From assembly GCF_963676685.1 (NCBI RefSeq), contig NC_092351.1, positions 52,824,001 through 52,888,000 on the forward strand: DNA of 64,000 bases, read 5' to 3'. The DNA is from Mytilus edulis (taxonomy: Eukaryota). Below, one piece after another: positions 14,928 through 51,272 of this stretch (its first letter is position 1; each line of letters opens with the position of its first letter). A program made the position numbers and the translations under genes. Under the pieces are notes generated by a model that was not told where the DNA came from, made no database searches, and was given only the letters and a program-made list of their open reading frames with translations.

Positions 14928-16829
14928 ATGACTGCAAAAGCGGTTGGAATCGATCTTGGAACAACTTATTCTTGTGTTGGAGCTTTCCAGAACGGTAAGG
15001 TTGAAATTATAGCCAATGACCAAGGGAACAGAACAACCCCGAGTTACGTGGCGTTTACGGAAACTGAACGTTTGATTGGAGATGCAGCTAAAAGCCAAGT
15101 TGCGATGAATGCCACCAACTCGGTATTTGACGCAAAACGTCTGATCGGTCGTAAATTTGATGACATTTCGGTGCAGAACGATATGAAACATTGGTCATTT
15201 AAAGTAGTAAATGTCAATAACAAACCAATGATTCAGGTGGAATTTAAAGGAGAAACGAAAAAATTCAGTGCCGAAGAAATCAGTTCAATGGTACTTACAA
15301 AAATGGCGGAGACGGCAAGTGCATATCTTGGAAAGAAAATAAAAGATGTCGTTGTAACGGTACCAGCTTATTTCAACGATTCTCAAAGGCAAGCAACTAA
15401 AGATTCTGGATCAATCGCTGGATTAAATGTTTTGAGGATTATCAATGAGCCAACCGCCGCGGCTCTAGCCTACGGTCTCGATAAAAATCTCAAAGGTGAA
15501 AAGAATGTTTTAATCTATGATCTTGGAGGCGGTACATTCGATGTATCGATTCTTACCATCGATGAAGGATCGATGTTCGAGGTGAGGTCCACGGCGGGAG
15601 ATACTCACCTTGGTGGAGAGGATTTTGATATTAGAATGGTGGATTTTTTCATGCAGGAATTCAAACGGAAACACCACAAGGATATGAGCGGCAATAACAG
15701 AGCCGTGAGGAGACTGAGAACGGCATGCGAAAGGGCGAAGCGAACTTTGTCTAGCAGTGCCGAGGCAAGTATAGAAATTGATTCACTATTTGACGGTGTT
15801 GATTATTATACTAAAATATCACGTGCTAGATTCGAAGAGCTCAATGCAGATCTATTTAGGGGAACACTTGAACCGGTCGAACGTGCACTTCGAGATGCAA
15901 AACTTGATAAATCTAAAATCCATGACGTTGTCCTGGTCGGTGGATCTACTAGAATTCCCAAAATTCAAAAGCTATTACAAGAATTCATGGCAGGAAGAGA
16001 GCTTAATAAATCGATCAATCCCGATGAAGCTGTCGCCTATGGCGCTGCGATACAAGCCGCCGTTCTAACAGGCGACACCAGCGAAGCAATCAAAGATGTA
16101 CTCTTAGTTGACGTTGCGCCATTGTCTTTGGGAATTGAAACAGCAGGTGGCGTTATGACAAATCTGATCGACCGGAACAGCAGAATACCTTGTAAAATGG
16201 CAAAAACATTTACAACTTATGCAGACAACCAACCTGGTGTTCATATACAGGTGTATGAAGGTGAGAGGGCTATGACCAAAGACAATAATCTGTTAGGAAA
16301 TTTTGATTTAAATGGTATACCACCCGCACCACGTGGTGTGCCGCAAATTGAAGTGACATTTGACATTGACGCTAACGGAATCTTAAATGTTCATGCCGAG
16401 GATAAAAGTACGGGTAAATCGAATAAAATTACAATTACAAACGATAAAGGACGATTGAGCAAGGCCGAAATAGACCGAATGGTTAACGAAGCAGAGAAAT
16501 ACAAAGATGAAGATGATAAACAGCGCGAAAGAGTAACTGCGAAAAATCAGCTTGAGAATTATGCTTTTACCGTTCGGATGGCAATAAATGACGCTGGCGA
16601 CAAGCTGTCACAAGATGAAAAAGACAAAGTGTTGAAAAAATGTGAAGAAACACTGAAATGGCTAGAAGCAAACACGTTAGCCGATAAAGATGAATACGAC
16701 TATCACATGAAAGATTTACAACAGGTAGCTTCGCCTGTAATGACAAAATTACATGGAGGCGGTGCCAAATCCGGAGGCGAATCACACGGAGGCTCAACAC
16801 AGGGACCAACAGTTGAGGAAGTAGATTAA
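14928..16829 (+). CDS. HSP70: Heat shock protein 70, cytosolic inducible type, intronless (633 aa)
   Basis: ORF carries [44 protein letters not shown] and ends GPTVEEVD. It has the DEGSMFEV variant typical of inducible invertebrate HSP70, no GGMP repeats and no introns. First ATG is at 14928 (the track starts at an upstream TTG). AATAAA at ~16979. Confidence 0.97.
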
Positions 16830-26883: not shown

Positions 26884-29800
26884 ATGGATGGTATTATGCC
26901 AAGAGATTCTTTGTTCCAGCTTCGTGATATGTTCGTGGCACCGGACCAAGGAGATGATTCTGACAGTGACATTGATGATTCAGTAAGAATGGAAAATAAA
27001 ATATATAGTACAAAAAGTACATTTTATACAATAGTTCATTTATTATACCCCATGTAACGAAGTTGGGAAGAGTATAATGTTTTTGACCCATCCATCTGTC
27101 TGTCTGTCCGTCAGTCCTATTTCTTTTCAGTTCAACTCCTCTCATACCACACAACAGAATTTCATGAAACTTTTTTAGATAATAAGGACATACTTATATA
27201 ATGTAGATGTGCACATGGAAAGGAAATAACGATTCAATTTTTTTCTAGGAGTCACAATTACCTAAGAATTATAATGAGTCTACAGTACTAAATTAAGTAT
27301 TTACAGTTTTCATCAGACAGACATGTAAACCTCTCATATTAAAGGTTGTTATTTTAACCTTCTTCAGATGATGAATATAGTAATCAAATATAATCATGTG
27401 ATAATTCAGAAAAGATTGCTTTCGTTTTTGTCATTTTCGGATTAAATGCAATTTTAATTTTTCGATATTGAGAAAAATCCTGTAAAATTCATATAAAATA
27501 TTTCGAAATGCGAGTTTAAATTATTGCGTTTACAACTCTGTCGCATTTTACACAATATAAAAACCTCGCAATAATTTCTGAATTTAAAGTATGTAATAAA
27601 TTTGAATTAGGAGCTATAGTTAATGTTTAAAAATCTGAAAACCACTTCAAAGTTCATGTTGGACAACAAATTGATTGACCTTCATGACCTTCCTGACTTT
27701 TTTGAGGGGTTAGGACTGCTTGTGTTTGAGAAAACTGCATATTTTATCATGACAGTCTTTCATGAGAAAATTCCTGCAATTATAAGATAATCTTTATTAA
27801 CTGACATGCATTTATTTTTTATAAAGTATGTATAAAGTTTGCAGTTTTAAATTTAAATGCTAATTTTTAACCAGTAGGTGGAGTGAACAAATAATTATAT
27901 GCTTGTATGAAGTCAATAAAAAGTTAAAAACATTATATCATGAAGTGAATGCCTATTAATAATTCATATCAATTTTTTTTAGCCAATTGGTGGAGTGAAC
28001 AAATTAGGCCCAGGAGACCTTGGACCACAGAAGAAAGAAGCAGCACCAAAAGGAATAGGTACAAGTCATTAACTGAAATGTTTATTTTTATGCACCACCT
28101 ATGATAGTAGAGGGGCATTATGTTTTCTTGTCCATCCGTCCCCTGGTCTGTTCTGTCCCGCTTCCGGTTAAGGTTTCGGTCAAGGTAGTTTTTTGATGAA
28201 GTTGAAGTCCAATCAACTTGAAACTTTGTACAGATGTTCCCTATAATATGATCTTTCTAATTGTAATGCCAAATTAGAGTTTTTATCCCAATTTCAGGGT
28301 CCACTGGACATAAAAAATGATAGTGCAAGATCCATGTACTAGGGACACATTCTTGTTAAGGTTTATAATAGACCTATGATGATCTCTTCAAAGTGTAATC
28401 AAGGTCACTAAGTGGAAATTAGAAAATAGCATAAGATATTGATAATAATTCGATGAATATTGCAAAATATCAAACTACAGTGAAACCTGTCCAAACTGAA
28501 CACCCACGGGACTTTGCGTTTTGTTCGGTTTTCCCAGGTGTTCGGACACCAAAATAGTTTTGGCACTTACTGACAAGGGATAATAGGTGACACAACAGAC
28601 GACAATTTATTTTTGTGTTGATTTAGATGTTAATGTAAGAAAATATAAGTAGATGAAGATAGGCGTATTGCTTCATTTTTGTTAATAAATCAAACGCCAC
28701 TCCGTCAATCACGCTCGCCGTTGTGAGATGTCCGACATGGAGGGATTTTGCTTTTGATAATAATTTTCTCATCTATAATTCACTGACTAATTCAGACTCC
28801 CAGTCGCTGTCAAATGACGATTCCGTAGTTTAATCGAGATCATCATTGTACACATGAGTTCTCGGACTAAACTGGCTGATTGATACTTCACCACACGATA
28901 AGAGTGAAACAACAGCAGGGGTCCAGTTTATTCTTGGACTTTATCGTTGCTAAATAGCTAACAGAAGTCTTTGGAACATCCTATTCAAATGTATAGGGCA
29001 TCTAAAGGGGAATCCGACAATAGAAAGCCATTGACCTTGTTGTGTTGCACACCTTCTTAATCCAGTGAAAAGCTTTAAAACTATTATTTAATTAAACAGT
29101 TTAGCTACAAAATGGCAGTTACGATTTTGTGGCCGTAATTATTTGAGTAACGTGCATTTAATTCTTTCCTTGTCATTATCGGCCATGGCGGTAGCTTACC
29201 AGTTAAACGTTTCTTTACAAAAAAATTACTTTAGACATGAACACAAACTTAATTTTTAAAGACAAATTTACTAGCAAGCCTTTAAAAAGCGTTCGGAATT
29301 CGATGTTGACAGGATTGGGTTTTATCAGGTTAGATTAACGTTAATTGATAGGGAAATATTTCGGGACTTTGAAAATTGTTCGGTTTAAACTGAAATTTGG
29401 TTTTCTCAGGGTTCGGTTTACCCAGGTTTCACTGTATAAGAATACTGTCCAAGGCAACGGTTTAATCTTGCCAAATCATACAAAATAACTGACCCCTAAT
29501 TATTATTGTCATAACACTGTGAATAATAGGCACAAGTTTTTTTTTGTGAATCTCTGTTGATGGTGATTATTCGATTTGTATTTAGAATCTACAAATTTAC
29601 AAAAAATTGTATTCTAAAATAATTTTGTAACATGTCAACATCGTTTAATCTTTTTTAAGCAGTGTTAAATTCCAAATTCTATAAAATAATGTTTTTTCAC
29701 TAATATAGTATATAAAGTCTTAATAAATGATGAGTTGCATAATTTGGAATTGTTAACTATAATTGGTAACATGCATTTATCATTGTTTATATATATAAAT

Positions 29801-32800
29801 ATATATAGTTATGGATGTACTTAGGTGAAGTTTTGGAATTTGTTTCAGATGTTTGGACTCCTTGATGTTTTTCCATAAGATACAATATAAAGTATTGGGC
29901 CCCAAAACACCTATTTCTCTTTTAATATAAAATTGAGAATAGCTCATTTGACAAAATTTAAGCAAATTCTTTATTTTCTTTCGTTGGATTTGAGACCCAA
30001 ATAATACCAATGCAAATATAAGGTAAAAGCCTTTTCCCGCCATATTTTATAAATTAAAATATCTCGAAAAGGAGCTCCATGACCTATCAATAATTTTAGG
30101 CTTATTTTATCCTCAACTAATACTCTTTCAGCTTAAAGTATCAATTTTAGATTCTTGATTTATTTAATTTCATCTAAGATCACCTAAGTATATCCTTAAG
30201 ATTTCCAGGTCAGTTTGTTCTTTCATACTCTGTCTTCACTTATTTTTTTATAAGGCCAAATAAAAAAGTATTGGTGGTTCCAGTTACATCTGAAAAAAAG
30301 TTAGGGTAGGTAGGTAGAGATTTTTTTTTATTTTATGTTCTTTTTTTACATTGAGTCTATGGGAGCAACATTCTGACTTTAACAGTGCTTAATGAAAAAT
30401 GACAATAAAATCTTTAGGGTAGGCTTTTTTTAAACCGAAAAAGTAGGGACGGTAGGGTTACTGGAACCACACATATATTTTTATTTGGCCTAACCAAAAT
30501 AAATACGATGACTTTACTGCTGATGTTCTATTATTGTAAATTTTATATTCCAGAGAAGACACAGAAGAAGAAAACAAAAGATATTTGGGACGATGATGAA
30601 GTGGTGGAGGGATCAGAGTATGACACAATATATGACCCACGACCTCAACCAGAGTAAGGAATGAGAAATATACAATTGGAGATAACTTGCACAAAACACA
30701 TTACTGTGGATTCATTTATTTTCGTGGGTATCAATTTTCTCGATTTGAAAAAAAACTTGCAGTTTCGTGGATATTTGATTTCGTGGTTTTGTCTCTGGAT
30801 GCAGAACCTATAGAAAATTTGGACATCGTTGAATATTTGAATATTTGAATTCATGGTTAAACTGTAGCCACGAAACCCATGACAATTGGTATCCAAGAAA
30901 TAATAATGAAACCACAGTATATAGATCTCATCATCATGTTATTATTTCATGTAACTTTTAACCAGCTTTTGGAATCCTACAATACATTTGGGTCAAATGT
31001 AAGAAAGCTAACTTTTAAAACATTTGCTGAGACTTTCACTCTGACAATAAACATGATAAATAAAATGAAATTTGAATAATCCAGACAATCACTTATTGTC
31101 CCAACATTGCAATAACAAATCACCTCACCCAATATGAATTTTATTGACCCGATTAATTCTCATATTAGGACAATTGCACACTGTGTGACTTATATAAGTA
31201 ATTTAACTAAAGGAGATAACTATTGTGAAAATCAGTAATTGAACCCAGGGAGATAATTATTGTTAATATAAGTAATTTAACAAAGGGAGATAACTATTGT
31301 GAATATAAGTAATTTTACCAAGGGAGATAATTATTGTAAGTAATTCAGCCAAGGGAGAATATTTTTTGTAAATATTAGAAATTTAACCAAGGGTGATAAT
31401 TTTTGTGAATATGAGCAATTTAACCAAGGGAGATAATTATTGTTATTATTAGTAATTTAACGAAGGGGGATAGTTATTGTTAATATTAGTAATTTTATCT
31501 AGGGAGATAATTCATTATCAAATTTTGTTTTTTTACAGTTATGATATTATTTACAAACAAGCAATAACCTCAGAAGACATGTTTCTACAGATGGGAAATA
31601 AAAACAATGCCACTGCTAGCTGTGAAGATATGGTTGTAAGTGTAAAAAAGAAATGCTTAAAACATTTATATTTTCATGAAATAAATTTAAAAAAAACTAT
31701 GTCTTTAACCTACATTCCAGAAATGAGAGCTATGTTGCAATCACCTATGAGTTTGTCCAGCCATTGTCAAACAAACCATTTCTTGACAATTTTCTCAAAC
31801 TACCATCTGAATTGGCAGGGTTAAATAATCGATTGTTTTGTTTTATTGTATGACATGTCAGACATCTTCTTCCTGTTTGCTTATTCTTTGAATATTTTAG
31901 TTAATCGCTATTCTACGAAGTTTTTCTTTGGTCTTGTTGACTGATAATTTCGTTTCTCAGTGGAGCCGAGTGATATGAAAAATTTATCGCTTAAAACTAA
32001 GGGAGCATGTGGCGTTGCTTATGAAATTGACATGAAATTGATGTCATAGGTAATGTAGCGTTAAACATATTATCATTGGTCATCTCAACTCGATCGCTTC
32101 TCTCACTTTTGCAGTACATTTTTTTGTACCGGCTCAAGCGAAAAAATCAATCTTGTTGAGAAGATCAATGATAATCTATAAATATTGATTGATCGATCTT
32201 GAGGTTTTTTGTCACACATTCTTCTGGTATGTACTAAACTTAAGATATTCATATTTGTTCATCAGCTTGACCTTGGTCAGTTATTATGTTTTGCATCTGT
32301 GGGACATTTAGTTTCTGTTGGAAGTTACTTTGAATTTTTCAATGTTGAATGGAGCATACATTTTTCATCAAACTTTTCTCTAAAACATCTCAATATAATA
32401 ACTTCAATTTTCTATATGTTGAATGGATCAAACATTTTTAATCACTCTTTTCTCTAAAACTACTCAACAGAATACCTTCATATTTGATTAGCAGCTTGAA
32501 GATGATGGTTTGGAAGGAATGAGCAAAATACATTAATTCCTTCACAGATAAAGTATTTGAGTTATCTCCCATAGACTAAGAAAATCTTCTTTTTTTCCTT
32601 ATCACTTTTTAAAATTTATTATTAATGTCTACTTTTATCATGTTAATTGTTCTAATCAAAAGCGTTCTTAATGACTTGTTATAATTAGACCTTTCTACTT
32701 TCAGGTGAAAATAGAACTACCAGGCACCAAAGGTTCTGATATAGAATTAGACGTCAAATCTAAATTTTTAGATTGTAGAACACCCAGAAGGTAAAGTTTG

Positions 32801-35667
32801 TAATTTTATTGTCGAGCCTGCAACTTTTGTTGCAGAAAGCTCGACATAGGGATAGTGATCCGGCTACGGTGACGGTGGCGTTAGCTTACTTCTTTAAAGC
32901 TTTATATTTTAGAAGGTAGAAGACCTGGATGCTTCATACTTTGTATATAGATGCCTCATGTTACGAACTTTCCGTCAGTCACATGTCCAATGTCCTTGAC
33001 CTCATTTTCATGGTTCAGTGACTCCTTGAAAAAAAAGTTAATATTTTTTGTAACGTTAAATTCTCTCTTATTATAAGTAATTGGATAACTATATTTGGTA
33101 TGTGCGTACCTTGCAAGGTCCTCATGCCCGTCAGACAGTTTTCACTTGACCTCGACCTCATTTCATGGATCAGTGAACGAGGTTAAGTTTTGGTGGTCAA
33201 GTCCATATCTCAGATACTATAAGCAATAGGTCTAGTATATTCGGTGTATGGAAGGACTGTTAGGTGTACATGTCCAACTGGCAGGTGTCATCTGACCTTG
33301 ACCTCATTTTCATGGTTTAGTGGTTACAGTTAAGTTTTTATGTTTTGGTCTGTTTTTCTTATACTATATGCAATAGGTCTACTATATTTGGTGTATGGAA
33401 TGATTGTAAGGTGTACATGTCTAGCTGACAGGTGTCATCTGACCTTGACCTCATTTTCATGGTTCAGTGGTCAAAGTTAAGTTTTTGAGTTTTGGTCTAT
33501 TTTTCTAATACGTTATGCATTAGGTCAACTATATTTGGTGTATGGAAATATTTTATGATCTATATGTCTGTTACGCAGGTTTTATTTGACCTTGACCTCA
33601 TTTTCACGGTCCATTGCTAAGTGTTAAGTGTTTGTGTTTTGGTCTGTTTTTCTTAATTTATAAGCAATAATTCAACTATATTTGTTGTATTGATGAATTG
33701 TTAGCTGTACATGTCTGCTCGGCATGGTTCATCTGACCTTGACCTCATTTCATGGTTCATTGATCCATGTTTCGTTTTCTTGGTTAATGTTGAGTTTATG
33801 TGACAGTTGTAATAAAGCTTTATATTTAGGTCTATCAACATAATATCAATGATTAGTAAAGAAGGCGAGACATTTCAGCGTGTGCACTCTTGTTTTAGAC
33901 AGTTGGGCCTAATTTGTTTTGAAAGGTTCAATATCAAGTAAAAAGCATGAGATTTTAAGCAAACAGCAATCTAGTATTAAATTGAGAATTAAACCAAAAT
34001 CTTGACAGTGCCACTTCACTAAACTGTGGAAATTTGTAAATAGTCAAAATCAAATGTATGGCAACTATGGATTCATTTTTTGCTCACCTGACCTGAAAGG
34101 TCAAGTGAGCTTTTCTCATCATTTGGCGTCTGTCGGCGTCTGGCATCTGTAAACTTTTACAAAATTCTTCTCCTCTGAAACTACTGGGCCAAATTTAACC
34201 AAACTTAGCCATAATCATCAGTGGTGTATCTAGTTTAAAAAATATGTCTGATGACCCTGCCTACCAACCATAAAAGCAATAATGTTCAGCCAAGTAAGAT
34301 CTACAAATAAGTCAAATGACCAAAATTGTCAGTTGACCCCTTAAGGAGTTATTGCCTTTTATAGTCGATATTTAACAACTTTTCATCATTTTTTGTAATC
34401 TTGTACAAAAATCTTCTTCTCTGAAACTACTGGGCCAAATCTAACCAAACTTGGTCACAATCAATTCTAAACTATCTTGGTTAAAAATGTGTCCAGTGAC
34501 CCTGTCTGCCAACCAAGATGGCTGATATTACTAAAAATAGAACAAAGGGGTAAAATGCAGTTTTTGGCGTATATCACTGAAACTAAAGCATTTAGAGCAA
34601 ATCTTACATGGGTTAAAAATGTTCATCAGATTTCAGAAGAATCTGACAACATATTGTTTGGGTTGCTGCCCCTGAGTTAGTAATTTTACAAAAAAAATGC
34701 ATTTTTTATGTCCCACCTAAGATAGTAGATGGACATTATGTTTTCTGGTCTCTGCGTCCGTTTGTTTGTTCTTACGTCCGTCTGTCCTTCTGTCTGTCCA
34801 TTCGTCCCGCTTCAGGTTTAAGTTTTTGGTCAAGGTAGTTTTGGATGAAGTTGAAGTGCAATCAACTTGAAACTCAGCACACATGTGCCCTATGATATGA
34901 TCTGTCTAATTTTAATGCCAAATTAGTGTTTTGACCCCAATTTGATGGTTCACTGAACATAAAAAATGATAGTGCAAATTTCAGGTAAGAGTTTTTGGTC
35001 AAGGTAGTTTTTGATGAAGTTGAAGTCTGATTAACTTGAAACTTAGTATACATGTTCCCTATGATATGATCCTTCTGATTTATATGCCAAATTAGAGTTT
35101 TAACCCCAATTTCACGGTCCACTAAACACAGAAAATGATAGTGCGAGTGGGGCATCTGTGTAGTATGGACACATTTTTGTTTGGTATTGTCTTAGATATC
35201 GTTACAATACCAAATAAAATCCAATATTTACTACTATTGATTATAATGTTAACCTTATTTTACATGAATTCCAAAGCATTAGTAAATCCAGGTGAGCGAT
35301 GCAGGCTCTTTTCGTTTGTACAAATTATCACGGATATTTGAATTCATGGTTTTGCCAATGTCTGCATACAACCTGATAAAAATTTGTAATTCGTTGAATA
35401 TTTAAATTCCACGAAAAATTTATAAACTAACAGTAACAGACAATGAATCAGATCTTTGCAAAATGGAGATAGATTCCTTAATTCCTTAATTTAAGATGGT
35501 TCCATAATAATAGGTTAATACTTCATTTATTTTTTTCCAGTAAACTAGGACTACATCTTCCACATCCGGTTGACCACAAGGCAGGGAAAGCACAATGGGA
35601 TGCTGACAAACAAGTATTAACTGTCACATTACGGATGGTCAGAGATTATGATGATTTTAATTTTTGA
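26884..35667 (+). CDS. DNAAF6: Dynein axonemal assembly factor 6 (PIH1D3/Twister) orthologue, 6 coding exons, 194 aa
   Basis: Exons 26884-26982, 27983-28058, 30554-30653, 31539-31635, 32705-32790 and 35541-35667. All introns are GT-AG and phase-compatible (585 nt total). Translation: MDGIMPRDSLFQLRDMF...LGPGDLGP...KDIWDDDEVVEGSEYDTIYDPRPQPDYDIIYKQAITSEDMFLQMGNKNNATASCEDMVVKIELPG...LDCRTPRSKLGLHLPHPVDHKAGKAQWDADKQVLTVTLRMVRDYDDFNF*, which matches the recognised PIH1D3 motifs. Confidence 0.92.
28478..29434. mobile_element. Tc1/mariner (pogo/Tigger-type) MITE in a DNAAF6 intron
   Basis: TA|CAGTGAAACCTG ... CAGGTTTCACTG|TA. Confidence 0.78.
30254..30490. mobile_element. GGCCAAA-terminal MITE, TAA TSD
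   Basis: TAA|GGCCAAATAAAAA..GTGGTTCCAGT ... ACTGGAACCAC..TTTTATTTGGCC|TAA. Confidence 0.72.
30704..30917. mobile_element. TA-TSD MITE (mariner-type)
   Basis: TA|CTGTGGATTCATT ... AATGAAACCACAG|TA. Confidence 0.65.
31195..31512. repeat. Degenerate ~36-bp tandem repeat upstream of a DNAAF6 exon
   Basis: About 9 copies of AATTTAACCAAGGGAGATAATTATTGTGAATATAAGT. Confidence 0.8.
32806..33893. mobile_element. Helentron-type (HINE/pearl-like) non-autonomous element with internal ~146-bp tandem array
   Basis: Inserted in a T-run. 5' subterminal inverted motif GTCGAGC..GCTCGAC, a short GGTGAC/GGCG microsatellite, 5-6 repeats carrying TGACCTTGACCTCATTTTCATGG, and a 3' end GGCGAGACATTTCAGCGTGTGCACTCTTGTT. 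Confidence 0.65.
34704..35182. mobile_element. HINE-like repeat (other copies at ~28086-28356 and ~44106-44398)
   Basis: TTTTATG.CCC...CATTATGTTTTCTGGTC, a (GTCC/GTTC)n microsatellite, two ~152-bp core repeats, and a ...GGGGCAT..GTGTA...GGACACATT.TTGTT end shared among the three copies. It is nested in another HINE-like element starting at ~34078. Confidence 0.65.
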
Positions 35668-38915: not shown

Positions 38916-41031
38916 ACTCCTACCTAGGAGTCTACTCCCGTATTCGGAAGAAGAAGAAGAAGATATAACAAAATCATTTAAAGAATATAATTAATATTTT
39001 TTGCACAGACACATTGTTATATAAATTATTTATTTTCAAACGAGAATGATTCTGTTCCAGGTCAGTTTGAACTTTCCTTTGAGGTCGGTTTTTTTTTTTA
39101 TTTTACCTCTTAAATGTTGATTTTTATAACGATCTTGGTTGAAAGACGGCCAACATTGGTGAACATTTTTCTTGCCGAGTACTCTTCATGGTATCAATAT
39201 AAATGTATCCTTTTGAAAACGGCTGAATTCTAGTAAAAGTGAGCCCGGGAAAATCGCTCGTTTTCTAGTCTCTCTTTTATGGGAAGGAAAAAGGAGGGCT
39301 CTTATAATGTGTTACCTGTATTTAAAGAGATTTCTATCCATACACTTCAATGTATAAAATTATAAACAAATTTGATGTTTAGTCAAATATTGGTCTACAA
39401 ATATTGGAAACATACTATATACTTCTGCAACTATTATTTAAATTCATTTTACACTAAATGTGCGTACAATTTGTACTTGTAAGTACTGCCTATTATTCTG
39501 CTTCTGTATTGTTCGAATACTGTTTGGGTACGTCCTCTTCCACATTCAATTTACCCTCTTTTTTTTTTACAAAAGTTAAGAATAAAAAATAAACTTAATT
39601 TAGCGCGAAGGATAAAGTGCAGTATAACAAATTGGGAACATTGAATGAAACATTATGATTAAATATGGACTCGCTACGTCTCGAAAAGAATAAATGCTCT
39701 TTTTTCTAACAATTTAATATAGCTGATATATACAAGTATATATTATATTTACGAATATATAATCAAACATCATGTGCAGACATACCCGACTGTAATATTA
39801 CAATTTTCATTAATGTCCGAAATCTGCTGACCAGTAAGTGAAATACACGTCTCATGCCTTAAGGTATATGCACAATTTTTAATAACATTTTTGTTACAAT
39901 ATTATTTATGTAATTTGTTATGTAAATTTCTGCAACCAGGAATATCTATTTAATGATGGGCGACTGTAAGAAAAAATCACTTTTGTTTTGAAGTCGTTAT
40001 CCACCAGTCCACAGTGGTAAGTTGAAAAATCTAGTTTTTAATTTTGATATTAAATATACGTAAGCAAGTTGGTGTAGGGGTATATAGATTTTAGAAAGAT
40101 AGTACAATGTACGATATTTATCATAGTTTATGATAAAAAAATTGTTGTTGTAAATACTCAAATCATATTGTTTAAAATTCATATCTCACCTGTGACAAGT
40201 CAGAGACATATAATACAAGGTATCTGGTCTTAATAAGATACCACAACGAGTACATTGTCGGAAAATATAAAGAAAAAGTCCTTTTGAAACAGGACAAGAA
40301 ACGAGGTTCTCCTTCGTAGCAATTTTGATTTAGATTACAATTAGAGTTTATACTACTAGTATTCATATTTCCAGGAAAGTAAATATACATGCTGCAATGC
40401 CTGTATACAATATTGGTTAAATTAAAAAAAAGAGTATACAATTTGTGTATGAGGCTGTCCAAAGCCAGGAGCTGTAGGTCAGTGCCGTTGTAAAATATTT
40501 GTTTGTTTGTTTGTTTGTTTGTTTGTTTGTTTGTTTGTATCACATCTTTCATATTTGTTTTGCATAAATTGTTTTATTATAAATTAGGCCGATAGTATTT
40601 TCAATTGAATTTTTTCATATCTTCCATGTCGGGTCTTTTTATAGACGACTATACGGTGTGGTTTTTTTTTTCTCATTGTTGATGTCCGTACGGTTGCATT
40701 GTTTTCATATTGCTAGTTTGTTTCCTGCCTTCTGGCTGAAAGATAGAAAAGTTTTTTAAATATCTTGAAAACATGCACATTGACCTATATATTTTTGCTC
40801 TTTTGAATTATGTATTAACCCCCTATCAATATAAACCAGTGCTAAGTCTGAACCTGAACCTTGGAGTAGCGAACTTCCTCAGATGTTGTTATAACCGAAA
40901 ATATCTTTAAAATGTTTCATACATTTGTGTAACAGTCATTTAAATCTAAATTACACATGGAAGCAGGAAATACAACATCTGCATATTTTATTTTGCACTT
41001 ATTTCTATATTTGTTGATTTATTTCAGAATC

Positions 41032-41880
41032 ATGATGAAGATAGTTCTTTTCGGTCTTTTGGCTGTCGGAGCCATGGCTCAATTCCCTGGATTAATGGGA
41101 GGATTTGGTGGGCAGCTCCCAAGTGGTGCCATGGACATGCTCAAAGACCTTAAACCAGACGACATAAAAAACGCCATCAAACACATGTCACCAGAAATGA
41201 GAGACATGGCTAGAAGTATGGGAATCACCGAAGACCAAATAAAGAACGCCGTCAAAAATATGCCAGAGGATTTCGACGTGTCTTCCATGGTTTCCGGTCT
41301 GTCTGGTAAAATGGCCGACAACAAGGATGCAATGAAGGACATGATGATGAAAGAAATGGACGAAATGAAAGAACAGATGAGAGAGGAATCTGTAGCCGAT
41401 TTCAAAAATGAGATGGACAACTTTGGATTTGATTTGAGTCAAGGTGCTTCCGGGCTCAGAGGTCAAATTTTACCAAAAATGACCGAAATGATGGGAGAGA
41501 ATCTTAGATACGAAGGTATTGATACTAATGATCATGAAGCTCTCCGTAAAAACGTCCATGTCGAAATCAGAATGATGATTGGAGCTAAAAGTGATACCAC
41601 TAACGATGAAGTCAGAAGAATGCTCAAAGAAAAAATCATGGAAGAAATGAAAGAAGATGGAGTTGAATTCAACAAAGAAAAGGCACAAGGTGAATTCAAG
41701 AAAGCAATGATGGAAGAATTGAAAGATATGGGAATGGAGGCCAAAGACGATATTGATACAAGCTCTTTGAAAGACATGTTGAAGACCGCCATGAAATCCG
41801 GTAAAATGGGAAATACTCAAGGTATGATGCAGCAGTTCCTCCCAATGATGATGAACCTCGATATCAAAATTGATGCTTGA
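41032..41880 (+). CDS. Secreted methionine-rich helical protein of unknown function (282 aa)
   Basis: Long ORF with higher GC than its flanks. ATG follows a polypyrimidine/TTTCAG acceptor at 41027. Signal peptide MMKIVLFGLLAVGAMA|QFPG. 41 Met in 282 aa (hand count), rich in K/D/E, no Cys or Trp. The upstream 25 codons in the track ORF are likely intronic. Confidence 0.85.
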   Translation: MMKIVLFGLLAVGAMAQFPGLMGGFGGQLPSGAMDMLKDLKPDDIKNAIKHMSPEMRDMARSMGITEDQIKNAVKNMPEDFDVSSMVSGLSGKMADNKDAMKDMMMKEMDEMKEQMREESVADFKNEMDNFGFDLSQGASGLRGQILPKMTEMMGENLRYEGIDTNDHEALRKNVHVEIRMMIGAKSDTTNDEVRRMLKEKIMEEMKEDGVEFNKEKAQGEFKKAMMEELKDMGMEAKDDIDTSSLKDMLKTAMKSGKMGNTQGMMQQFLPMMMNLDIKIDA

Positions 41881-43927
41881 ACATTTTAATTGTTATTATC
41901 AATGACATTTCACAATAGTAAATTGTATAAAAGAATACTTGTTATTGTCAGTGTCTTTATGCATTAAATACTCGATTACATGACATAAGTTTAGTAACAT
42001 AATTGTAGTTATCAAAGCCATCAAACAACATAACTCATGCAGTATCCGTATATCTGCAAACTTGAACACATATCTGGAAGTAAATCAATAGTAATAGCGA
42101 TCGATATTTTTAATTTTTTGTTCAATTGATTGTTGGTTTCTTATCGTCCAGCGACAAATATTTCAAACATATTCAGGACAAGAACACATTAATAATAAAT
42201 GCAATAGGTAGGTCCTGTAATAGAGGCTTCCCGGGGTAAAGGTCGGGTAAATTTGGACTGCCCCTTGAGAATTATGGTAAAGTGTATATCCAAATCATAA
42301 AACCATAGACATGCAATGAAAAAAAGCTGAAGAATTGATAGTTGGAAGGATAAACGGTAGGGCATTGAATGTTTAATATTTTGGGGATAATACGCATTCG
42401 TGACTAAATCATAAGAAACTTCCCGCATGTGTGACGAAATGAAAATCAATACATGTTACAATTGTTGAAAACCAAACTTTTTCAATGGTTTGAATACAAA
42501 TTTAATGTTCTTCCCTTTAGGAATCACACTGAGCGACTCTTTAGAAATTTGTAAACACGCAAAGACATTTGGACACACAATCTCAAGATAATATTACCTT
42601 TAAAATAGACATGCCCACCTTATAAATGTTCCCACTGTCAATATCATGTTGTGTACCGAGAGTAACATGACATAACCTTGGCTAACTGAAATCCATGCTT
42701 AAAAATATACAAATATAGATTGAAAGTAGTACTTCCGGTTTAATTGTTTTTTAAAATACCAATACCAGTACGTATTTAAAAAATTTCAGAATACGTGTAG
42801 CAATGTGAGGAGTACTTAAATGTGTGTCAAATATGATATAAGAAATAGTTGAAAATATCTCATAAGAATTTTTATAAACTGAATATTTTATCAGTCAGTC
42901 TTTGGAAATATAAAATATTCAAGTAAAATGTGAATTTAATACGGAGAAATACTAGTTTCACATAAACTTTAAGGTTCCTTGTGCGATGTCCGTTCCAGGG
43001 AGAAATTTTGAGGGACTTAATTATCGACTCTAAGACTTCATTGACACCACTTTCGAGTATGGTCTTGAGAAACGATGCTAGTCCGTCGGAATGGGACGAT
43101 AAATGGCTGACCTGTGTTAAGAGAGAACAATACAAGACACCCTTGTAGATTTCGAAATAGAACAGGTTAATGCATTACGAGGCAACACTTGCAAAGTGGA
43201 AAGGGATTTATATAAGTTGTAATAACTTTTTCCCAATCCACTATATATAAATATGTTTAAACAAAGACTATGGGGAGAGACAAAGTAAAAAGAATACCAG
43301 TTTTTGCTGGATTGCTGTTGCTGGGCTGAGTGGCTTATACTTCTGCTACCAATATATATACATGTATTAGTCTTAAGTCAACTTTACCTGCGATGAAGTT
43401 TTTTCCTTCTTTCATTTCTCAAAATCCTAAAACGAAGAGTCAAAATTTTGAAAATAAAAGTTTATAAAAATATTGTTTGAATGATATTGGTAAATAGAAC
43501 TGATTCGATTGAGAACGATTATTTCGGTTCCCATTTTGCCCTTTTTGACCCTATATTTTCCGTTTATGTGTACTGGACTTCTAGTATTTTGCAGAAGACT
43601 GTATACATTACATGCAACCAAACTTGTTTCCAGCACAAAACAATCTACCCAACAATATTTTAACATCAGCTTGCTTATTCTGTTATTGTGCAACATTAAC
43701 AAAAACAAACTGAGGAGCACAATATTGAGTTCTAAACAATAATTACAAATTCATAAATTCATAAATTTGGAAATTATTATTTGTTAAATATTAATAATCT
43801 AAAGTTTCATAACAATACGTGACTTGATATCTGTCAAAAGTCACGGACAGTCAGTAAAATAGACCTTATCTATTCAATGTCGTCTTATATCACCGATTTT
43901 TAGTCAGTACTCTCACATTTATTCACC

Positions 43928-46900
43928 ATGAGGTCTTTGTATATGTGTGCCGTGTTTCTGTCTTGTTTGTCTTGTTCTTTTGGAGCAACTATTTTAGAAT
44001 ATTTACAGAGCAAACCAGCCAATTTTACATATGCCGTCCAAGCTATTAAAATTGCAAACTTGACGAGTGAACTTCAAACAGGAGGTATGATTATTTTTAT
44101 ATAAGTTTTTATGCCCCATTTATGGGCATTATGTTTTCTAGTCTATGTGTCCGTTTGTTCGTCCGTTCGTTCGTCCGTTCGTCCGTCTGTTCCGCTTCAG
44201 GTTCAAGTTTTTGGTCGAGGTAGTTTTTAATGAAGTTGAAGTCCAATGAACTTGAAACTCAGTAAACATGTTCCCTATGATATGATCTTTTTAATTTTAA
44301 TACTAAATTAGAGATTTTATTCCATTTTCACGGGCCACTTAATCTAGAATATGATAGTGTGGATGGGGCATTCGTGTACTTGGGACACATTCTTGTTTAT
44401 CATTCATTTACACATACGTACACGTTAACTTTGATCATTTCGTTTGCCCTTACTATTATAGCGTAGCAACATTGGTCCGTCCGTCCGTCTTATCTTGTTA
44501 TAGTATTAGAATTGCAAACTTGACGAGTGAACTTTAGTCAGGAGGTATGGTATGATTATATTTCATTTAATTCTAAAAGTTTTATTATTCTTTTCCTACA
44601 TGTACATGTTAATCTTGACCATTTCTAGATCTTTTGCCCTGACTATTATATCAAAGGAACATTGGTCCGTCCGTCCGTCCATCCGTAATCATCAGATAAT
44701 CTTGAAGTTATGATCACATTCACATCGCATTTAATTTCGCCATTGGGTCCGACTCGAAGCTACTAGCTTACTGCACGTGTTTATTGTGAGGTAAATTTTA
44801 TTTCAAATATATATATATAAATATATATACATTGTATATGCCAAATTACGATTGTGACCCGGAAATCACGGTTCAATAAATATAAATTAGTAGGATAGTG
44901 CGGGCGAGTATTAGTACGATGGAATTTTATTCTTAGTACAGTCGGTGTTATAACGCTTGTTAACATGTTTAACTGTCCCCATTCTGTTTGTGCTTATCCC
45001 AAGCGAGGAGGTTGATTTAACGGCCGTTGCTGTCTTATTAATTTTTTTGGTTTCTCGATATATCGCCTTATTGTTCGCTAGCTATAATTGTTCGCTATCT
45101 TCTGCCTGGTAGCGAGCAACCTGTAATTCAGTAGTTGTTTTTGGTTATTGAGTGCCATGACTTTTTCACTTTATTGATTTTAGCTCAAATCAAATAGTTT
45201 GGGACCTTTTACGGCAAACATTACGGCATAGATTAATTGCTCATTGCTGAAGGCCATATTGTGACTTGTTATTGTTTACATTCTTGTCCACTGGTCATTG
45301 TGGATAGTTGTTTCAATCCTTCCACATATCTTTATATGTATATTAAAGTTTGACTGATATATACTTTATTGGTGGGTATCTTATTGACTGTTGTGCATTA
45401 AGAGATAACGCTGTTTTAGAAGGAATTTTGTTGGAATACATTGTGATTTAAAATATAACTAAGTTAGAGGATATTTTGTCAAATAACAACGATGATATAC
45501 ATATCCTTGTATTTATATATATGGTTATAACTTGTATTCGTTGTATTGAAACCACTGTGACATCTCCTTTATAATATTGTACGTTGCAAGTCTTTTGTCT
45601 ATTAACCCGTAGTCTTGGACCATTCTTTTTTTTATGCTGTAAACATTATTCACACCATCTTGGATATAGGGAGAGAAGATACTTGAAAGGAGCAAACCAT
45701 ATATAAGTTGATGAACACAGAAAATAACATGGCCAAAAGAAAAAAAGACTAAAAGACAAATACAATTGAGAATGGAAATGGGGAATGTGTCAAAGAGACA
45801 ACAACCGGACCATAGAGCATTTCAAAACAAACAGTACGAAAACTACGAATAGAGCATGCAATGCAAACCATAGCAACCCCAAGGGAGCAAACTCGGAAAG
45901 ATTTTCGTTTAATAACACTTTTGAATTTTCTAATTTGATTCTATATCTGTTTTAATTTACAATAGATATAATTATCATGATAATTTGAATTAAATAATCC
46001 AAAATGTACTGATGAATTTTTGTAATGTACAGGTCCATTTACGGCATTTATACCAACTGATGCTGCATTCCAGAAAATACCAGCACCCATTTTACAACAA
46101 CTTTTAAATGATCAAACTGCCATCAGAAGTTTGTTGCTCAAACACGTGACAAATGGAGCACTCATTTCACCATTCATCAAAAGCGGAGACAATGAAGTAT
46201 CCCTTGGTGGTACCAACTTAACTTTGACCAAAGATGGCGCTGGCGTAAGTAACTATATGAAAGTAGATATAACCTGTAATTTAAATTGGCGAAAAATATC
46301 AATAAGTTCCATTAAGTCTTGAGCCAATTTTATTCCAGTTTGCCTATTTCGTACATGTTATTATTACTTACATTTTTATTGTTCAGATATATTATTAAAA
46401 AATACTGAAATCCGATTGTGATACATCAATTAACATTAGGAGGTAGAAATAGATTAAGGGAAATAACTCCAAGGAAACAGTCTAGTGCTTATGAACTAGA
46501 TTGTTCCTTAGTACTTGTTTCTTATTATCATATCAATAGATTATTGTTCTTTTAGGAGCTTGTGTATGTCTTTTGGAAAAAACTTTGATATTCCCGACAT
46601 GTTTAAATAACTAAATATTTTGGGGTTAAAACATTCATTGTTATTGTCTAATTGACATGTACCCCAATGAAGGATGAAATTTGAAAAAAATATGCAGGAC
46701 AGGAGTTTTGAGTAAAAAAAAAGGCAGGATGTGACACTTGCAAAAAAAAAAGTCAGGACGACAATTTAGGTAAAAAAAAGTCAGGATAAACTAAAAAAAA
46801 AAAAGACAGGACAAACTAAAAAAAAGAAGACAGGACCGATTAGAGTAAAAAATAAAAAGGCAGGACAAGATTACTGCTAAAAAAAAATGCAGGACAAAAT

Positions 46901-49900
46901 TTTTCATCATAGCCCCCCCCCCCCCCCCTCCCCCCCCCCCCCCCCCCATAAAAATCAAATGGTAGCTCCCTTAGATTCAAACATTTTCAATATTGCAAAC
47001 CGCACATTTCTATAAAAAGGTAAACACAGGAATTAAATAAACGTATATCTAACGTGATTTGCCTGCATTTCACATTGATTAAATTGGTTTTTATAATAAA
47101 TTGATTTTATGTGCATTTGATTCCGGTCGATCATGAAATTGTAAGAACTATTGCATGCGATCAACCCTTAAGTTCCTTTGCCTTTGTTCTGAATATTAAA
47201 CAGGTCGTCTCATATAAGGACGTTTTACAATTTTATTTGGACCCCGAACAAATGAATCAATTAACTATTAGTGCAGAGTTAGCGAGACCAACCATATATG
47301 GTGTCAGTAGAGTCGGTCTGAATTGATACGAAATAATCAATCGCGATCGTTTTATTACATCGACTCAAAATCATATTGAATCGATTATGATCGGCTTTCA
47401 CGTTTTGTATGCTTTTGTGATTTATATTGTAGGCAGTAATGGTGAATGGTGTCAAAGTTATCCTTCCTGACGTCATAGTAACCAATGGTGTTGTACAAGG
47501 AATTGATTTCGTCTTCAATGTTCCCGCTGCAAGCGTCAATATGGTTGAGTATCTTTTGAAAAATTCAGACAAATTCAGTGATCTCACGGCAGCATTGACA
47601 CTTGGTGGTTTACTGTCAGCACTAGAAGGTTAGTTTGTGTCAATACACTTGGTGGTTTACTGTCAGCACTAGAAGGTTAGTTTGTGTCAATACACTTGGT
47701 GGTTTACTGTCAGCACTAGAATGTTAGTTTGTGTCAATACACTTGGTGGTTTACTGTCAGCACTAGAAGGTTAGTTTGTGTCAATACAAAAGTGGTTTAC
47801 TGTCAGCACTAGAAGGTTAGTTTGTGTCAATACAAAAGTGGTTTACTGTCAGCACTAGAAGGTTAGTTTGTGTCAATACAAAAGTGGTTTACTGTCAGGA
47901 CTAGACGGTTAGTTTGTGTCAATACACTTGGTGGTTTACTGTCAGCACTAGAAGGTTAGTTTGTGTCAATACAAAAATGGTTTACTGTCAGCACTAGAAG
48001 GTTAGTTTGTGTCAATACAAAAGTGGTTTACTGTCAGGACTAGAAGGTTAGTTTGTGTCAATACACTTGGTGGTTTACTGTCAGCACTAGAAGGTTAGTT
48101 TGTGTCAATACAAAAGTGGTTTACTGTCAGCACTAGAAGGTTAGTTTGTGTCAATACACTTGGTGGTTTACTGTCAGCACTAGAAGGTTAGTTTGTGTCA
48201 ATACACTTGGTGGTTTACTGTCAGTACTAGAAGGTTAGTTTGTGTCAATACAAAAGTGGTTTACTGTCAGCACTAGAAGGTTAGTTTGTGTCAATACAAA
48301 AGAGCATTCAACATGTGCGCCATGTCAAACAAAATTAAACGTTTTTCATTGCATGCGAACTGGTGTTTATTAGTTTGCCTAAATTCAATATGAATGCCTT
48401 CACATATATATACAATGGGTTTGAATCCCGGCTAGGGAAGATCAAATAATTTGCGAAAGCAAATTTGCAGATCTAACATTGTTGGGTAGATGTTTAGACG
48501 AGTTGTATTTTTATATATATCACACCGCTTTTGTTTGTCCTAGAATAAAGCACCACGAAATTATACTAGTAAACATTTGATAACGAAAAGACCCTAAGTA
48601 GAAATTTCATGCTTGGATCACACGACGCCTGACTCCCACAAGTATATCGCATTTTCAGTAACGGAAACCATACTACGAAAGTTACAAGAATTTGAATGAA
48701 TGATGTTAAGTAAAAAAATCATGTTAAAAGAATTCTCATGAAAAAACAAATCTTATCGAAAAACCATGTGTTTTCCTGAGGACACGACCATTTAACTTCA
48801 AAAGGCGGAAAGGGGGGGGGGGGAGGGGAGCTTTACGTTTTTCTCTTAAAAAATATTCTGTTCCTAAGTTAATGAAAAAAACACTGTGGTCAAGCAGGTG
48901 ACAAAAATATTCCCTCATACTTTTCAGTGTTAAATTTTGAAAACAATAATATGATTGATAGCGTCGAAAAATAACGTAAAAATAAGTTAAATGGTAACTG
49001 CCTTAAAAATGGTTCCTAGCACTGGGAACGGACATTTCTACATTTTTTTTAGTTTGGTTCCAAACAACTGGTTTACCCTAGCGGTCTTCTCTATTTGTGT
49101 ATATTGTAATCGGATTATTTAAGAGCTCAACATTTGGTTTCGATGCATGTCTATCATTGAACTTGGATGCCCCTATGTCATTGACCTTGAATGACCCTTT
49201 ATCATTGACCTCTAGTGTCACACTGACAGTTTCTCAACGTGCACCTTATTCTTATGATTTTTCTTTTGTAGGCCCAGGACCTTTCACGTTATTTGCACCA
49301 ACAGATGCAGCATTCGCAACTTTGTCAACCTCACTACAAAGTCTAGCCTCAGATATGAATCTTTTTAAAAGTAAGATATTGCAGACATCTTCCAATCTTT
49401 TTGATGAGAAATCCATCATTATGATAGATAATTTTGTAAAAGTTATATACTTGCAACTTGAAACAGTACCGGACTCATTGGCACGTGTGAATTGCGAAAA
49501 TCTAGAGAATTCCTAGAATTATTTGCGGCATGCTCCATATATCTATTTTTGTTTATGTCAAAAGTATTTTTTTCTTTCTTTCAAATTCCGCCGTGTGCTG
49601 TGCATGTACATTGTACAGTTATACCGAAAACCTATCATGAACACTTAAAATAAGAAGCTTACTGTTACAAATTCAGATCTGCGTCAGATAGAAATCGCCT
49701 AGATGCTTGTGCACGTGTGCATGTACTTGTATATAAGAGGGTCTGGATGGGGGGGGGGGGGTCTGTTATTCTGCAAAAATTTAATTTTCACCCCTTTTTT
49801 CTCTAATCTTTAAAAAATTAACCCCTTTTTTTCTCTAATCTTCAAAAAATTAACCCCTTTTTTTCTCTAATCTCCTTTTTTTTGCCCGTTATTTTCTAAT

Positions 49901-51272
49901 CTTCATTTTTTGAGGGCATTATTCTTTAATCATTTAACCCCATCTAAACCCTCATATAACTTTGATATATTTTGAAACATTTAGATAAATACATGTCAAA
50001 TGAAAGATGAATTCTGGTCTGTTTTGTAGGGTTCTTGTATCACCCCAATATCTAAAGCGTTACATAATTTGCGAATATAATTAGTAAACAGATTTCTTGC
50101 TATTCATTTTGCATACATTCGACGCACATAATGCAATACTGCCGCTTTCAACGTCGTGGTTCATTAATGTATCATTAAAACATAACCAAAACAAAGCGGG
50201 AAAACCAGCGAGTACAAAAACAATATAGTCTCGCCAGAATCTATTTGTCAAATCAATAGTATCATAATACAAAATGTATGTATCATATATCTTATCTTTT
50301 TATATAGATATTTTGAAATATCATGTGGTCAGTGGGTCTACATACGCTGCAGATCTTAAGGATGGACAAAAAGTATCAACTCTGGCCGGAAGTGCTTTTA
50401 CAGTTACCAAAGCAGGCACAGGTGAGTATTAGGCATACGAACTAGTGGCATCAGCAGTGGTGGGTCCAAAGAGTGTGTTGGTGGTATGAGGTTGGAGTCC
50501 CCTTTCTTTGAACGAGCAATGTATTTGAATGGGACATATGGTTTAAACATTTCTCCTAGGTTGTGAGCCCTTTTAAAAATGACTGGATCCGTCCATGAGG
50601 AGAATAACAGAAGATTTTGATTTCATGCGAGTCAGATGGGTATCTTCTTTTTTTCATATTTTCTTTCTTTTTCTTTTTGTATAAATTTATAGGTCATTAT
50701 TCTCTAATCTTTATATTTTAGCATCCCATTATTCTCTATTCTTTTTTTCTATATGTTTTCTCTAGTATGTAAACCCCTCTGGACCTTATACATGTATCTA
50801 TGTTTCATGAAATGCATATGATAAAACCATAAAAAAAAGGTCCATGGAACCTTGTGCAATAGAATCATGGTAACAAAACACGTATAATATATTCAGGGGC
50901 GGATCCAGCCATTTCAAAAAGAGGATGGGGTTCAACTACATGTCCCCAATCAAATGCATTGATTGTCCCAAGAAAGGTGGGTTTCAACCCCCGGATTCCC
51001 CCTTCTGGATCCACCACTGAAATTGCTCGCAAGACTTTCGAATTCGTCCGAAATGACAACTTTATTTTATCTTTAATAGTTTGGTATTTAGTTTTAAAAT
51101 TTTTAATATCTTTTCGTGATTAAAAAAACCCGCTGGATCTATTTATAGAAAAATGCTTTTATATTTTTCAGCCGTCAGTATTGACCACGCTCACGTTACA
51201 CAGCCAGACATTCCAGTTCTCAATGGTGTTATACATGTTATTGATGGCGTACTTGTTCCCGCCACATTTTGA
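43928..51272 (+). CDS. Secreted two-FAS1 (fasciclin; TGFBI/periostin-like) protein A, 6 exons, 292 aa
   Basis: Exons 43928-44084, 46033-46244, 47433-47628, 49272-49370, 50308-50421 and 51172-51272, GT-AG, phases 1,0,1,1,1. Signal peptide MRSLYMCAVFLSCLSCSFG. FAS1 H1 motifs GPFTAFIPTDAAF and GPFTLFAPTDAAF, ILKYHVV, and H2 motifs NGVVQGIDFV and NGVIHVIDGVLVP. Confidence 0.9.
47598..48302 (+). repeat. Minisatellite of 15 x 46/47-bp units spanning the exon 3 splice donor of fasciclin A
   Basis: Unit (ACACTTG|ACAAAA)GTGGTTTACTGTCAGCACTAGAAG^GTTAGTTTGTGTCAAT, contiguous with no unique spacers. Confidence 0.95.
49737..49953. mobile_element. GAGG-terminal MITE, 6-bp TSD
   Basis: ATATAA|GAGGGTCTGGATGGGG ... 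CCCCATCTAAACCCTC|ATATAA, with internal TTCTCTAATCT repeats. Confidence 0.75.
50894..51019. mobile_element. CAGGGGCGGATCC-terminal MITE
   Basis: Same family as 10473-10636, with degenerate TSD ATATT/AAATT. A further degraded copy lies at ~11904-12061. Confidence 0.65.

Follow-up and report, generated by a model that had tools for sequence, protein, structure and literature searches.

The methionine-rich gene at positions 41032 to 41880 (+) of the window (the whole 64,000-nt stretch of Mytilus edulis DNA analyzed here) is real, spliced, and transcribed, and its product belongs to an undescribed family that spans Pteriomorphia and unionids and has no Pfam model. Our best explanation, to which we assign a probability of about 0.45 as a whole, is that the gene arose as an RNA-derived, truncated copy of an intron-rich paralogue and that it would encode a self-associating protein of a secretion. 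What had looked like one odd orphan thus becomes a definable bivalve family, one member of which is read, in one run, at a depth far above that of its neighbors.

The open reading frame is intact and encodes 282 amino acids in one exon without a coding intron (41032..41880, +), and it is covered by RNA contigs of runs X5 and X1. Methionine accounts for 41 residues (14.5%); there is no Cys or Trp, a single Tyr, and three His, and charged residues are abundant (30 Lys, 27 Asp, and 25 Glu). When recomputed, the frame, length, Met count, absence of Cys and Trp, single Tyr, and charge all agreed with the first-pass annotation of this DNA. The mature protein is acidic (net charge −14, pI 4.8) and contains two MMM runs (aa 104 to 106 and 272 to 274) besides several MxxM spacings. 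Residues 1 to 16 (41032..41079, +) form a predicted signal peptide, judged by eye from a hydrophobic core that gives way to small residues and Gln; the same anatomy is found in 10 of 10 family members compared, and the secretion signal proposed earlier is shared family-wide at this level of inspection. No transmembrane stretch follows it (top 19-aa hydropathy of 0.44). At 3.87 bits, the protein is not of low complexity overall, and low-entropy windows are confined to residues ~94 to 116 and 197 to 208. As a check for a neuropeptide or granin precursor, dibasic sites were counted: there are three, retained in 17, 4, and 6 of 26 sequences, and the commonest (RK172) sits within a predicted helix.

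Transcription, on which the earlier proposal depended, was demonstrated by a poly(A) contig of X5 that carries a spliced leader over the ORF. This contig of 926 nt has a leader of 42 letters and spans 41027 to 41910 from letter 43 on. The 5′ noncoding exon comprises at least 39994..40016 (+) and was placed by arithmetic on X5 depth and loose ends: a loose end of 20 letters precedes 39994 (20 + 23 = 43), and X5 depth in that bin is 1.07, equal to 17.5 × 22/360. GTAAGT stands directly 3′ of 40016, and the same kind of arithmetic on depth and loose-end rows yields a 5′-UTR intron of 1,011 nt bounded by GT and AG (40017..41027, +). The first 20 letters of the leader were rejected as an exon and read as a library fold-back; they match antisense coding sequence with 2 mismatches, plus one unrelated genomic place. 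A candidate polyadenylation signal, ATTAAA, is located at 41963..41968 (+); the X5 contig reaches 41910. The noncoding exon with its intron, the internal repeats of the protein, and a PIH1/CS-domain gene upstream were all overlooked at first pass.

Expression of the gene is strongly uneven across the four RNA runs compared (X1, X5, X21, and X24, among 24 listed), which carry no tissue labels and in which contig depth is a rough measure of expression. In X1, which we guess to be RNA and in which one contig begins exactly at a spliced exon, two coding contigs have depths of 1672 and 2872, intron pieces 4.7 to 7.5, and the last exon of the upstream gene 52.8; the coding depth is thus 32 to 54 times that of the upstream exon. 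Coding depth is 17.5 in X5 and at most ~2.8 in X24, and it is 0 in three coding bins of X21, the last two being counted on raw reads; the upstream gene is read in both X21 and X24. A further X5 contig, attached to a loose end at window position 41498, translates like another family member. It has no match in the M. edulis genome at ≤1 mismatch and may come from another species.

The protein had been called an orphan, a term refuted by two homology searches and by paralogues in the same genome. A single-sequence search gave 15 homologues among 357 candidates, and a profile search of 1.84 billion representatives gave 29, many of them single-exon fragments and one later dropped. The window consists of AT-rich animal DNA, the closest named proteins are from Mytilus (90 to 97% identity), and named members come from five Mytilus species, Crassostrea/Magallana, Saccostrea, Ostrea, Pinctada, Argopecten, Potamilus, and Sinanodonta, all annotated only as uncharacterized, unnamed, or hypothetical. 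No named gastropod or other nonbivalve member was present among the homologues found. The idea of a lineage-restricted secreted protein without a known domain therefore stands, with the lineage being bivalves broadly and not a single orphan gene. The HH probability to the unionid protein is 98.6%. A Pfam scan of the window protein and 18 bivalve relatives gave no family above cut-off, in line with the original failure to recognize a domain, and the ESM Atlas gave no usable match for the window protein or an oyster relative. Two matches were set aside: plant protein P0025, a spurious profile match, is a WIYLD repeat protein, and a copepod-labeled fragment is identical to the oyster C terminus and probably contamination. 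Literature searches by accession and topic, with subscription papers and bioRxiv supplements outside their scope, returned nothing on the family; its tissue may already be recorded in supplements of subscription papers or preprints.

We regard LOC134728072/LOC127712740 (Mytilus), LOC105318673/K1P2I4 and LOC111099091 (oysters), A0A194AMK7 (Pinctada), and the Argopecten and unionid hypothetical proteins as true homologues. They share the signal peptide, an N-terminal helix cluster, Gly-capped helical repeats, and a Met-rich acidic makeup, and most of them also carry a C-terminal strand motif. Unlike the window protein, these homologues are 394 to 510 aa long and continue through a spacer rich in Pro and Met into a conserved helical (coiled-coil-like) domain at the C terminus. 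The window protein is significantly similar to the family, in sequence or profile, over the signal peptide, N-domain, and repeats, and its Met share is the highest among 26 sequences compared (7 to 10% in oysters, 8% in unionid P0038).

Along the window protein, the signal peptide is followed by a Gly/Met tail, helices at 33 to 82, a variable linker helix, repeats at 116 to 260, and a terminal motif at 274 to 282. The N-terminal cluster of four short predicted helices (41128..41277, +; pLDDT of ~60) is the best-conserved folded part, with 46% identity to distant members versus 24% for the repeats. A possible resemblance of this cluster to STI1 or UBA domains was not adopted; only UBA-type Pfam rows appeared, far under cut-off and in relatives. 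About six repeats of 22 to 30 aa (41377..41811, +) are each predicted to consist of a helix, a Gly cap, a hydrophobic residue, and an acidic linker. In these units, the helix ends in Leu-Lys-acid-x-Gly and is followed by hydrophobic-acid-hydrophobic-acid, with the Gly at 132, 162, 184, 210, 234, and 257. In a leave-one-out profile test with 12 members, four repeats scored z values of 3.3, 4.0, 3.4, and 3.4, and the remaining two scored 2.6 and 1.3. In the PDB, the sequences that match best are those of designed helical repeat proteins (8cwy, 8cws, 5cwg, and 5cwb; E of 6e-6 to 0.04), which have similar repeated helix-Gly-turn units; these are artificial proteins, and the match is one of pattern, not ancestry.

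The C-terminal motif (41851..41877, +), in which hydrophobic and acidic residues alternate, is a predicted lone beta-strand. Of 29 family sequences examined, 19 carry it, with examples in unionids, oysters, scallop, and one M. edulis paralogue (C6-B), and it is terminal in the 6 shortest members (278 to 282 aa), among them the window protein. The motif is absent from the group of the other paralogue (C6-A), from P0038, and from four repeat-tailed members of the window clade; because C6-A and the four repeat-tailed relatives do without it, it is not indispensable. In P0009 to P0014 and their cluster members, a 27-aa C-terminal repeat in a variable number of 2 to 4 copies replaces the strand motif. 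Full-length members continue past the repeats with a Pro/Met spacer, the strand motif (where kept), and the conserved helical C-domain, whereas the window coding sequence stops right after the strand motif and thus lacks the C-terminal domain, to which nothing in the window or in the 30 kb beyond it matched. The window protein is therefore a member of a truncated subfamily, not a full-length member.

AlphaFold and Foldseek were run, as had been suggested at first pass, and gave a low-confidence model and no clear fold match. Two AlphaFold models had mean pLDDT values of 44.3 and 47.9 (pTM of 0.27 to 0.28) and were all-helical, unreliable, and without a strand at the C terminus. With such a model, the best Foldseek match had an E of 1.0, with none at E ≤ 0.001, and the best VIA Z score was 6.2 over 67 residues. 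Low-confidence models and blank fold searches of this kind indicate neither a new fold nor disorder. Since both models are poor and strandless C-terminally, helix packing and the strand are argued from the sequence pattern alone.

The M. edulis genome contains two tandem paralogues on C6, C6-A and C6-B, the window gene being on C8. C6-A has 16 coding exons and 15 coding introns, in a model identical to P0123, and C6-B has 9 coding exons and 8 coding introns and encodes 411 aa; the window protein is 36% identical to C6-A and 50% identical to C6-B. All coding introns of the two paralogues are in phase 1 except the last, the C6-B introns lie at or near C6-A positions, and both genes have a phase-1 intron at the end of the signal peptide. 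At five of six C6-B intron sites (codons 18, 73, 104, 171, and 248), the aligned codons of the window gene continue without a break, and the sixth (codon 281) coincides with the window truncation. The splice acceptor lies 4 nt upstream of the first ATG in the window gene, 3 nt in C6-A, and 1 nt in C6-B, its distance to a conserved Lys codon being equal in the window gene and C6-B. It thus stands at the place homologous to the first intron of both paralogues; among the 2680 ATGs of the window, 33 have such an acceptor by chance. Trees of 26 rows (support 96/93) and 20 rows (95/95) both make C6-B the sister of the window clade, and AU tests reject neither a grouping of this clade with C6-A (P = 0.098) nor one with the oyster group (P = 0.077).

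The missing coding introns, the kept acceptor, and the truncation together indicate an RNA-mediated truncated duplication. We consider it highly probable, on the comparison of these gene structures, that the gene is an RNA-derived duplicate of the C6-B lineage that came to lie between the PIH1/CS gene and a fasciclin (FAS1) cluster. Two routes are conceivable: recombination with cDNA would have removed all coding introns of a C6-B-lineage duplicate in one step, or a retrocopy would have been made from a transcript still containing intron 1. Either route would explain why the 5′-UTR acceptor survives. According to the accessible text of PMC3652778, the RT model predicts the simultaneous loss of adjacent introns together with the retention of 5′ introns. 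As in retrogenes and RT-mediated intron loss, all adjacent coding introns are gone, the contig differs from that of the intron-rich paralogues, and the 5′-most intron is kept. A classic retrocopy would also drop the 5′-UTR intron, whereas the window gene keeps a homologous one; a further difference is that the window copy is C-terminally truncated. Neither a downstream poly(A) remnant or target-site duplication nor flanking DNA similar to that of the paralogues was found, and such traces are expected to be missing because the event is old, yet their absence lends no support either. Full-length single-ORF relatives at ~50% identity sit on contigs of 56 and 105 kb, which suggests that mussels have had the intronless state for a long time. 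For gene order in distant mussels, two metagenome DNA scans gave pattern matches of which 0 of 590 and 0 of 103 were confirmed as the locus. The window gene offers a clean invertebrate example in which every coding intron was lost and the 5′-UTR intron kept.

Two features of the C6 locus were also recorded. C6-A (L007-L008) has seven phase-1 introns beyond those of C6-B, many at the Gly turn of a repeat, such that its exons approximate repeat units. A satellite of ~19 kb (L013-L014, G000:C6:92,129,900-92,149,000) lies directly upstream of C6-A, and its unit keeps open frames of up to 1232 codons.

As to function, we tentatively propose, at somewhat less than even odds, that the protein is a bulk, nonenzymatic, self-associating component of a tissue- or stage-specific secretion, for example mucus or an organic coat. 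Its helices would pack round a pliable, Met-rich hydrophobic core, and its acidic linkers would hold the protein soluble during storage. On release, Ca2+ and Mg2+ of seawater would screen these linkers, and the lone terminal strand would join chains through an intermolecular sheet; the retention of the strand motif as the terminus of the short members supports this proposal. In a mucus supplement (PMC11432763), the query strings were absent, as were the control IDs. The main rivals to a self-associating secretion protein are a lipid carrier, a shell or ligament matrix protein, and a reserve protein.

The role of methionine bears directly on the proposal. An amphipathic pattern with Met at hydrophobic positions had been described at first pass. 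It holds in part: in 4 of 13 predicted helices, the hydrophobic moment exceeds that of their own shuffles (P < 0.05), but the two segments quoted as examples gave P values of 0.12 and 0.15, and Met-Met spacings (14 tested, uncorrected) do not exceed shuffles, save i+7 at P = 0.043. When 10 distant members are aligned to the 38 Met positions of the mature protein, Met itself fills 86 of the 355 cells, and one of M/L/I/V/F fills 253. The combined share of these five residues is 30 to 33% in all 10 members, and the Met fraction of it ranges from 0.26 to 0.46. Met thus interchanges freely with Leu, Ile, Val, and Phe, and we therefore take it to be more likely an interchangeable, soft core residue, as far as aligned sequences can tell, than a redox or metal site. 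The same data weaken the earlier suggestion that surface Met serves as a sacrificial antioxidant or a chelator of soft metals (Cu+/Ag+). The 41 Met, the two MMM runs, the MxxM spacings, and the top Met share of the 26 sequences compared would suit that role, but relatives mostly have L, I, V, or F in the Met columns, the MMM runs are not conserved, Cys is absent, and His numbers only 3. Of the 30 Met in helices, moreover, 25 point to within 90 degrees of the hydrophobic face and none to the opposite side, a count that is partly circular because Met helps define the face. We hold the scavenging or chelating role to be most unlikely.

For the self-associating protein, the spidroin N-terminal domain provides a working analogy without homology. 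According to the accessible part of PMC6763431, core Met makes that fold dynamic and able to dimerize tightly; as described there, the domain is likewise secreted and helical, with unusually many core Met giving pliability for self-association. It differs in forming one helical bundle where the window protein has an array of repeats, and it is absent from 28 PDB rows at E ≤ 10.

Tandem helical repeats of 22 to 30 aa with Gly/Pro-rich turns, the lack of Cys, and a low-confidence fold are also what might be seen in an exchangeable apolipoprotein-like lipid carrier or surfactant, whose repeats would open on lipid droplets or membranes in a secretion, egg, or hemolymph. One relative, P0004, matched PF01442 (Apolipoprotein) with an E of 3.3e-5, but at 24.1 bits against a cut-off of 90; it was the only one of 13 proteins scanned to do so, and the window protein gave no match. 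Only the 4 of 13 helices mentioned above are significantly amphipathic, and Lys and Arg spread as 4/8/10/12 over four angle bins instead of clustering, as they do in class A helices, along the boundary between polar and nonpolar faces; Asp and Glu favor the polar center (17 of 35). We judge a lipid carrier unlikely.

An origin in shell, mucus, byssus, or another matrix had been suggested at first pass. Mussel byssal adhesives are Tyr (DOPA)-rich, basic, or Cys-rich or collagenous. None of these features is present in a protein with 1 Tyr, no Cys, and a net charge of −14, one Tyr per chain being unlike DOPA-based adhesives. In a partial Perna byssus peptide list (PMC6508894), 0 of 5 strings were found, which is a weak test. 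A protein of the shell, periostracum, or ligament matrix, which would bind Ca2+ via acidic linkers and form cross-links via Met, agrees with the acidic pI of 4.8, the predicted secretion, and the fact that all named matches come from shelled bivalves. Methionine-rich insoluble proteins are reported from Pinctada nacre, prisms, and ligament in the accessible text of PMC7591529, and unnamed M-rich proteins from Mytilus shell in that of PMC4517812. Against this reading, the M. galloprovincialis shell tables (PMC4517812; peptides and EST-derived sequences, 113 proteins) contained 0 of 5 strings, and a nacre proteome with a peptide column (PMC13190495) contained none of 8 strings taken from the mature protein of the Pinctada relative, both proteomes being limited in depth and databases. 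The supplement of PMC7591529, whose sequence figures may not be text, contained no family strings, and the accessible text of PMC5549309 had no mention of methionine. NU-5, LMP, MRNP34, and abductin, as far as PMC7591529 describes them, are secreted and Met-rich, and some are acidic; none surfaced in any homology search, and these shell and ligament proteins are described as containing low-complexity regions rich in Met, often together with Pro or Gly, whereas the window protein spreads its Met over charged helices. We conclude that the shell-matrix reading is unsupported by the two proteomes and rather unlikely, that the byssus result is a weak negative, and that mucus or another bulk secretion stays the best guess.

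The very uneven and locally very high depth would suit a protein that stores nutrients or sulfur in eggs, larvae, or reserve tissue. Met-rich storage proteins are found in seeds and insects. Poly(A) aquatic metatranscriptomes contain the window gene (4 rows, one study) and could have included gametes or larvae. However, the repeat geometry and terminal motifs are conserved family-wide, which suggests structure beyond storage, and Met makes up just 7 to 10% of oyster members and 8% of P0038. A reserve protein is, in our estimate, an improbable reading, slightly more so than a shell protein.

A wider picture, which we offer by analogy and think doubtful, is that bivalves possess helical-repeat material proteins of spidroin-like logic, in which a Met-softened array would be stored soluble and polymerized on release into seawater by terminal strand and coiled-coil modules; mussels would then have made a minimal, RNA-derived, highly expressed, strand-only version. 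If true, this would provide a natural test of Met cores driving ion-triggered assembly of marine secretions. On present evidence, the gene represents no new kind of biological system, its precedents being taxon-restricted Met-rich secreted proteins and RNA-derived duplicates.

The neighbors of the gene were modeled as well. Upstream lies the PIH1/CS-domain gene (26884..35667, +; 6 exons, 194 aa), an exon model with its last exon in an X1 contig, which we take to be DNAAF6/PIH1D3-like. Its last exon scored 23.2 bits against PF18201, with a cut-off of 23.3. Both fasciclin genes reported at first pass were confirmed in the window. FAS1-A (43928..51272, +; 6 exons, 292 aa, two fasciclin domains) has a model identical to P0053 and scored 199 bits against PF02469, and FAS1-B (54640 [approx.]..61286, −) is a partial model of five exon pieces drawn from exon matches. 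Further FAS1 exon matches occur on both strands at G000:C8:52,892,000-52,911,000, and the cluster probably comprises four genes. Two public Mytilus models fuse the ORF to a neighbor, P0002 to the upstream and P0059 to the downstream one, and both look wrong. P0002, a splice to the PIH1/CS gene, is an artifact because that 194-aa gene is complete with its own last exon. P0059, a fusion to FAS1-A via cryptic sites, was rejected; the X5 contig continues across the cryptic donor and beyond the stop. One fusion model apparently causes the Met-rich proteins to share a single 90% cluster with the periostin-like ones.

The first-pass annotation had further proposed that the gene and the adjacent FAS1 genes form a coregulated secretory module, possibly with a read-through fusion. 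FAS1-A shares the strand of the ORF and begins 2 kb downstream of it, named records of the ORF and FAS1-A lie on equal-sized contigs in three Mytilus species, and P0059 joins the two; synteny between congeners is, however, expected by default. No FAS1 match was found within 80 kb around the intron-rich C6 paralogues (C6:92.07-92.15 Mb), the sole C6 fasciclin match among 51 being at 65.6 Mb. Nor does RNA depth track FAS1-A: coding sequence versus FAS1-A exon 1, the only FAS1 part compared, gave 1672 to 2872 versus 0 in X1, 17.5 versus 2 in X5, ~2 versus 0 in X24, and 0 versus 0.12 in X21. Coexpression is thereby disfavored and no more, because the reads covered FAS1-A exon 1 alone. Overall, we consider a FAS1 module very unlikely, and the best explanation is that the FAS1 neighbors are incidental.

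Several other elements were noted in the window. Intron 3 of FAS1-A contains a 47-nt tandem array of 15 copies (47598-48298) that duplicates the end of exon 3 with its GT donor and thereby creates many decoy donors, and intron 1 holds a degenerate copy of the exon 1 end (44502-44546). One FAS1-B intron carries an element of ~1.8 kb (56548-58324) with long inverted arms (297 nt at 99%, then 219 nt at 90%), which looks like a nonautonomous DNA transposon, and a perfect 44-nt inverted repeat with a 3-nt loop (56136-56226). An intronless Hsp70 gene (14931-16829, +) scored 835 bits against PF00012; the intronless state is usual for inducible Hsp70.
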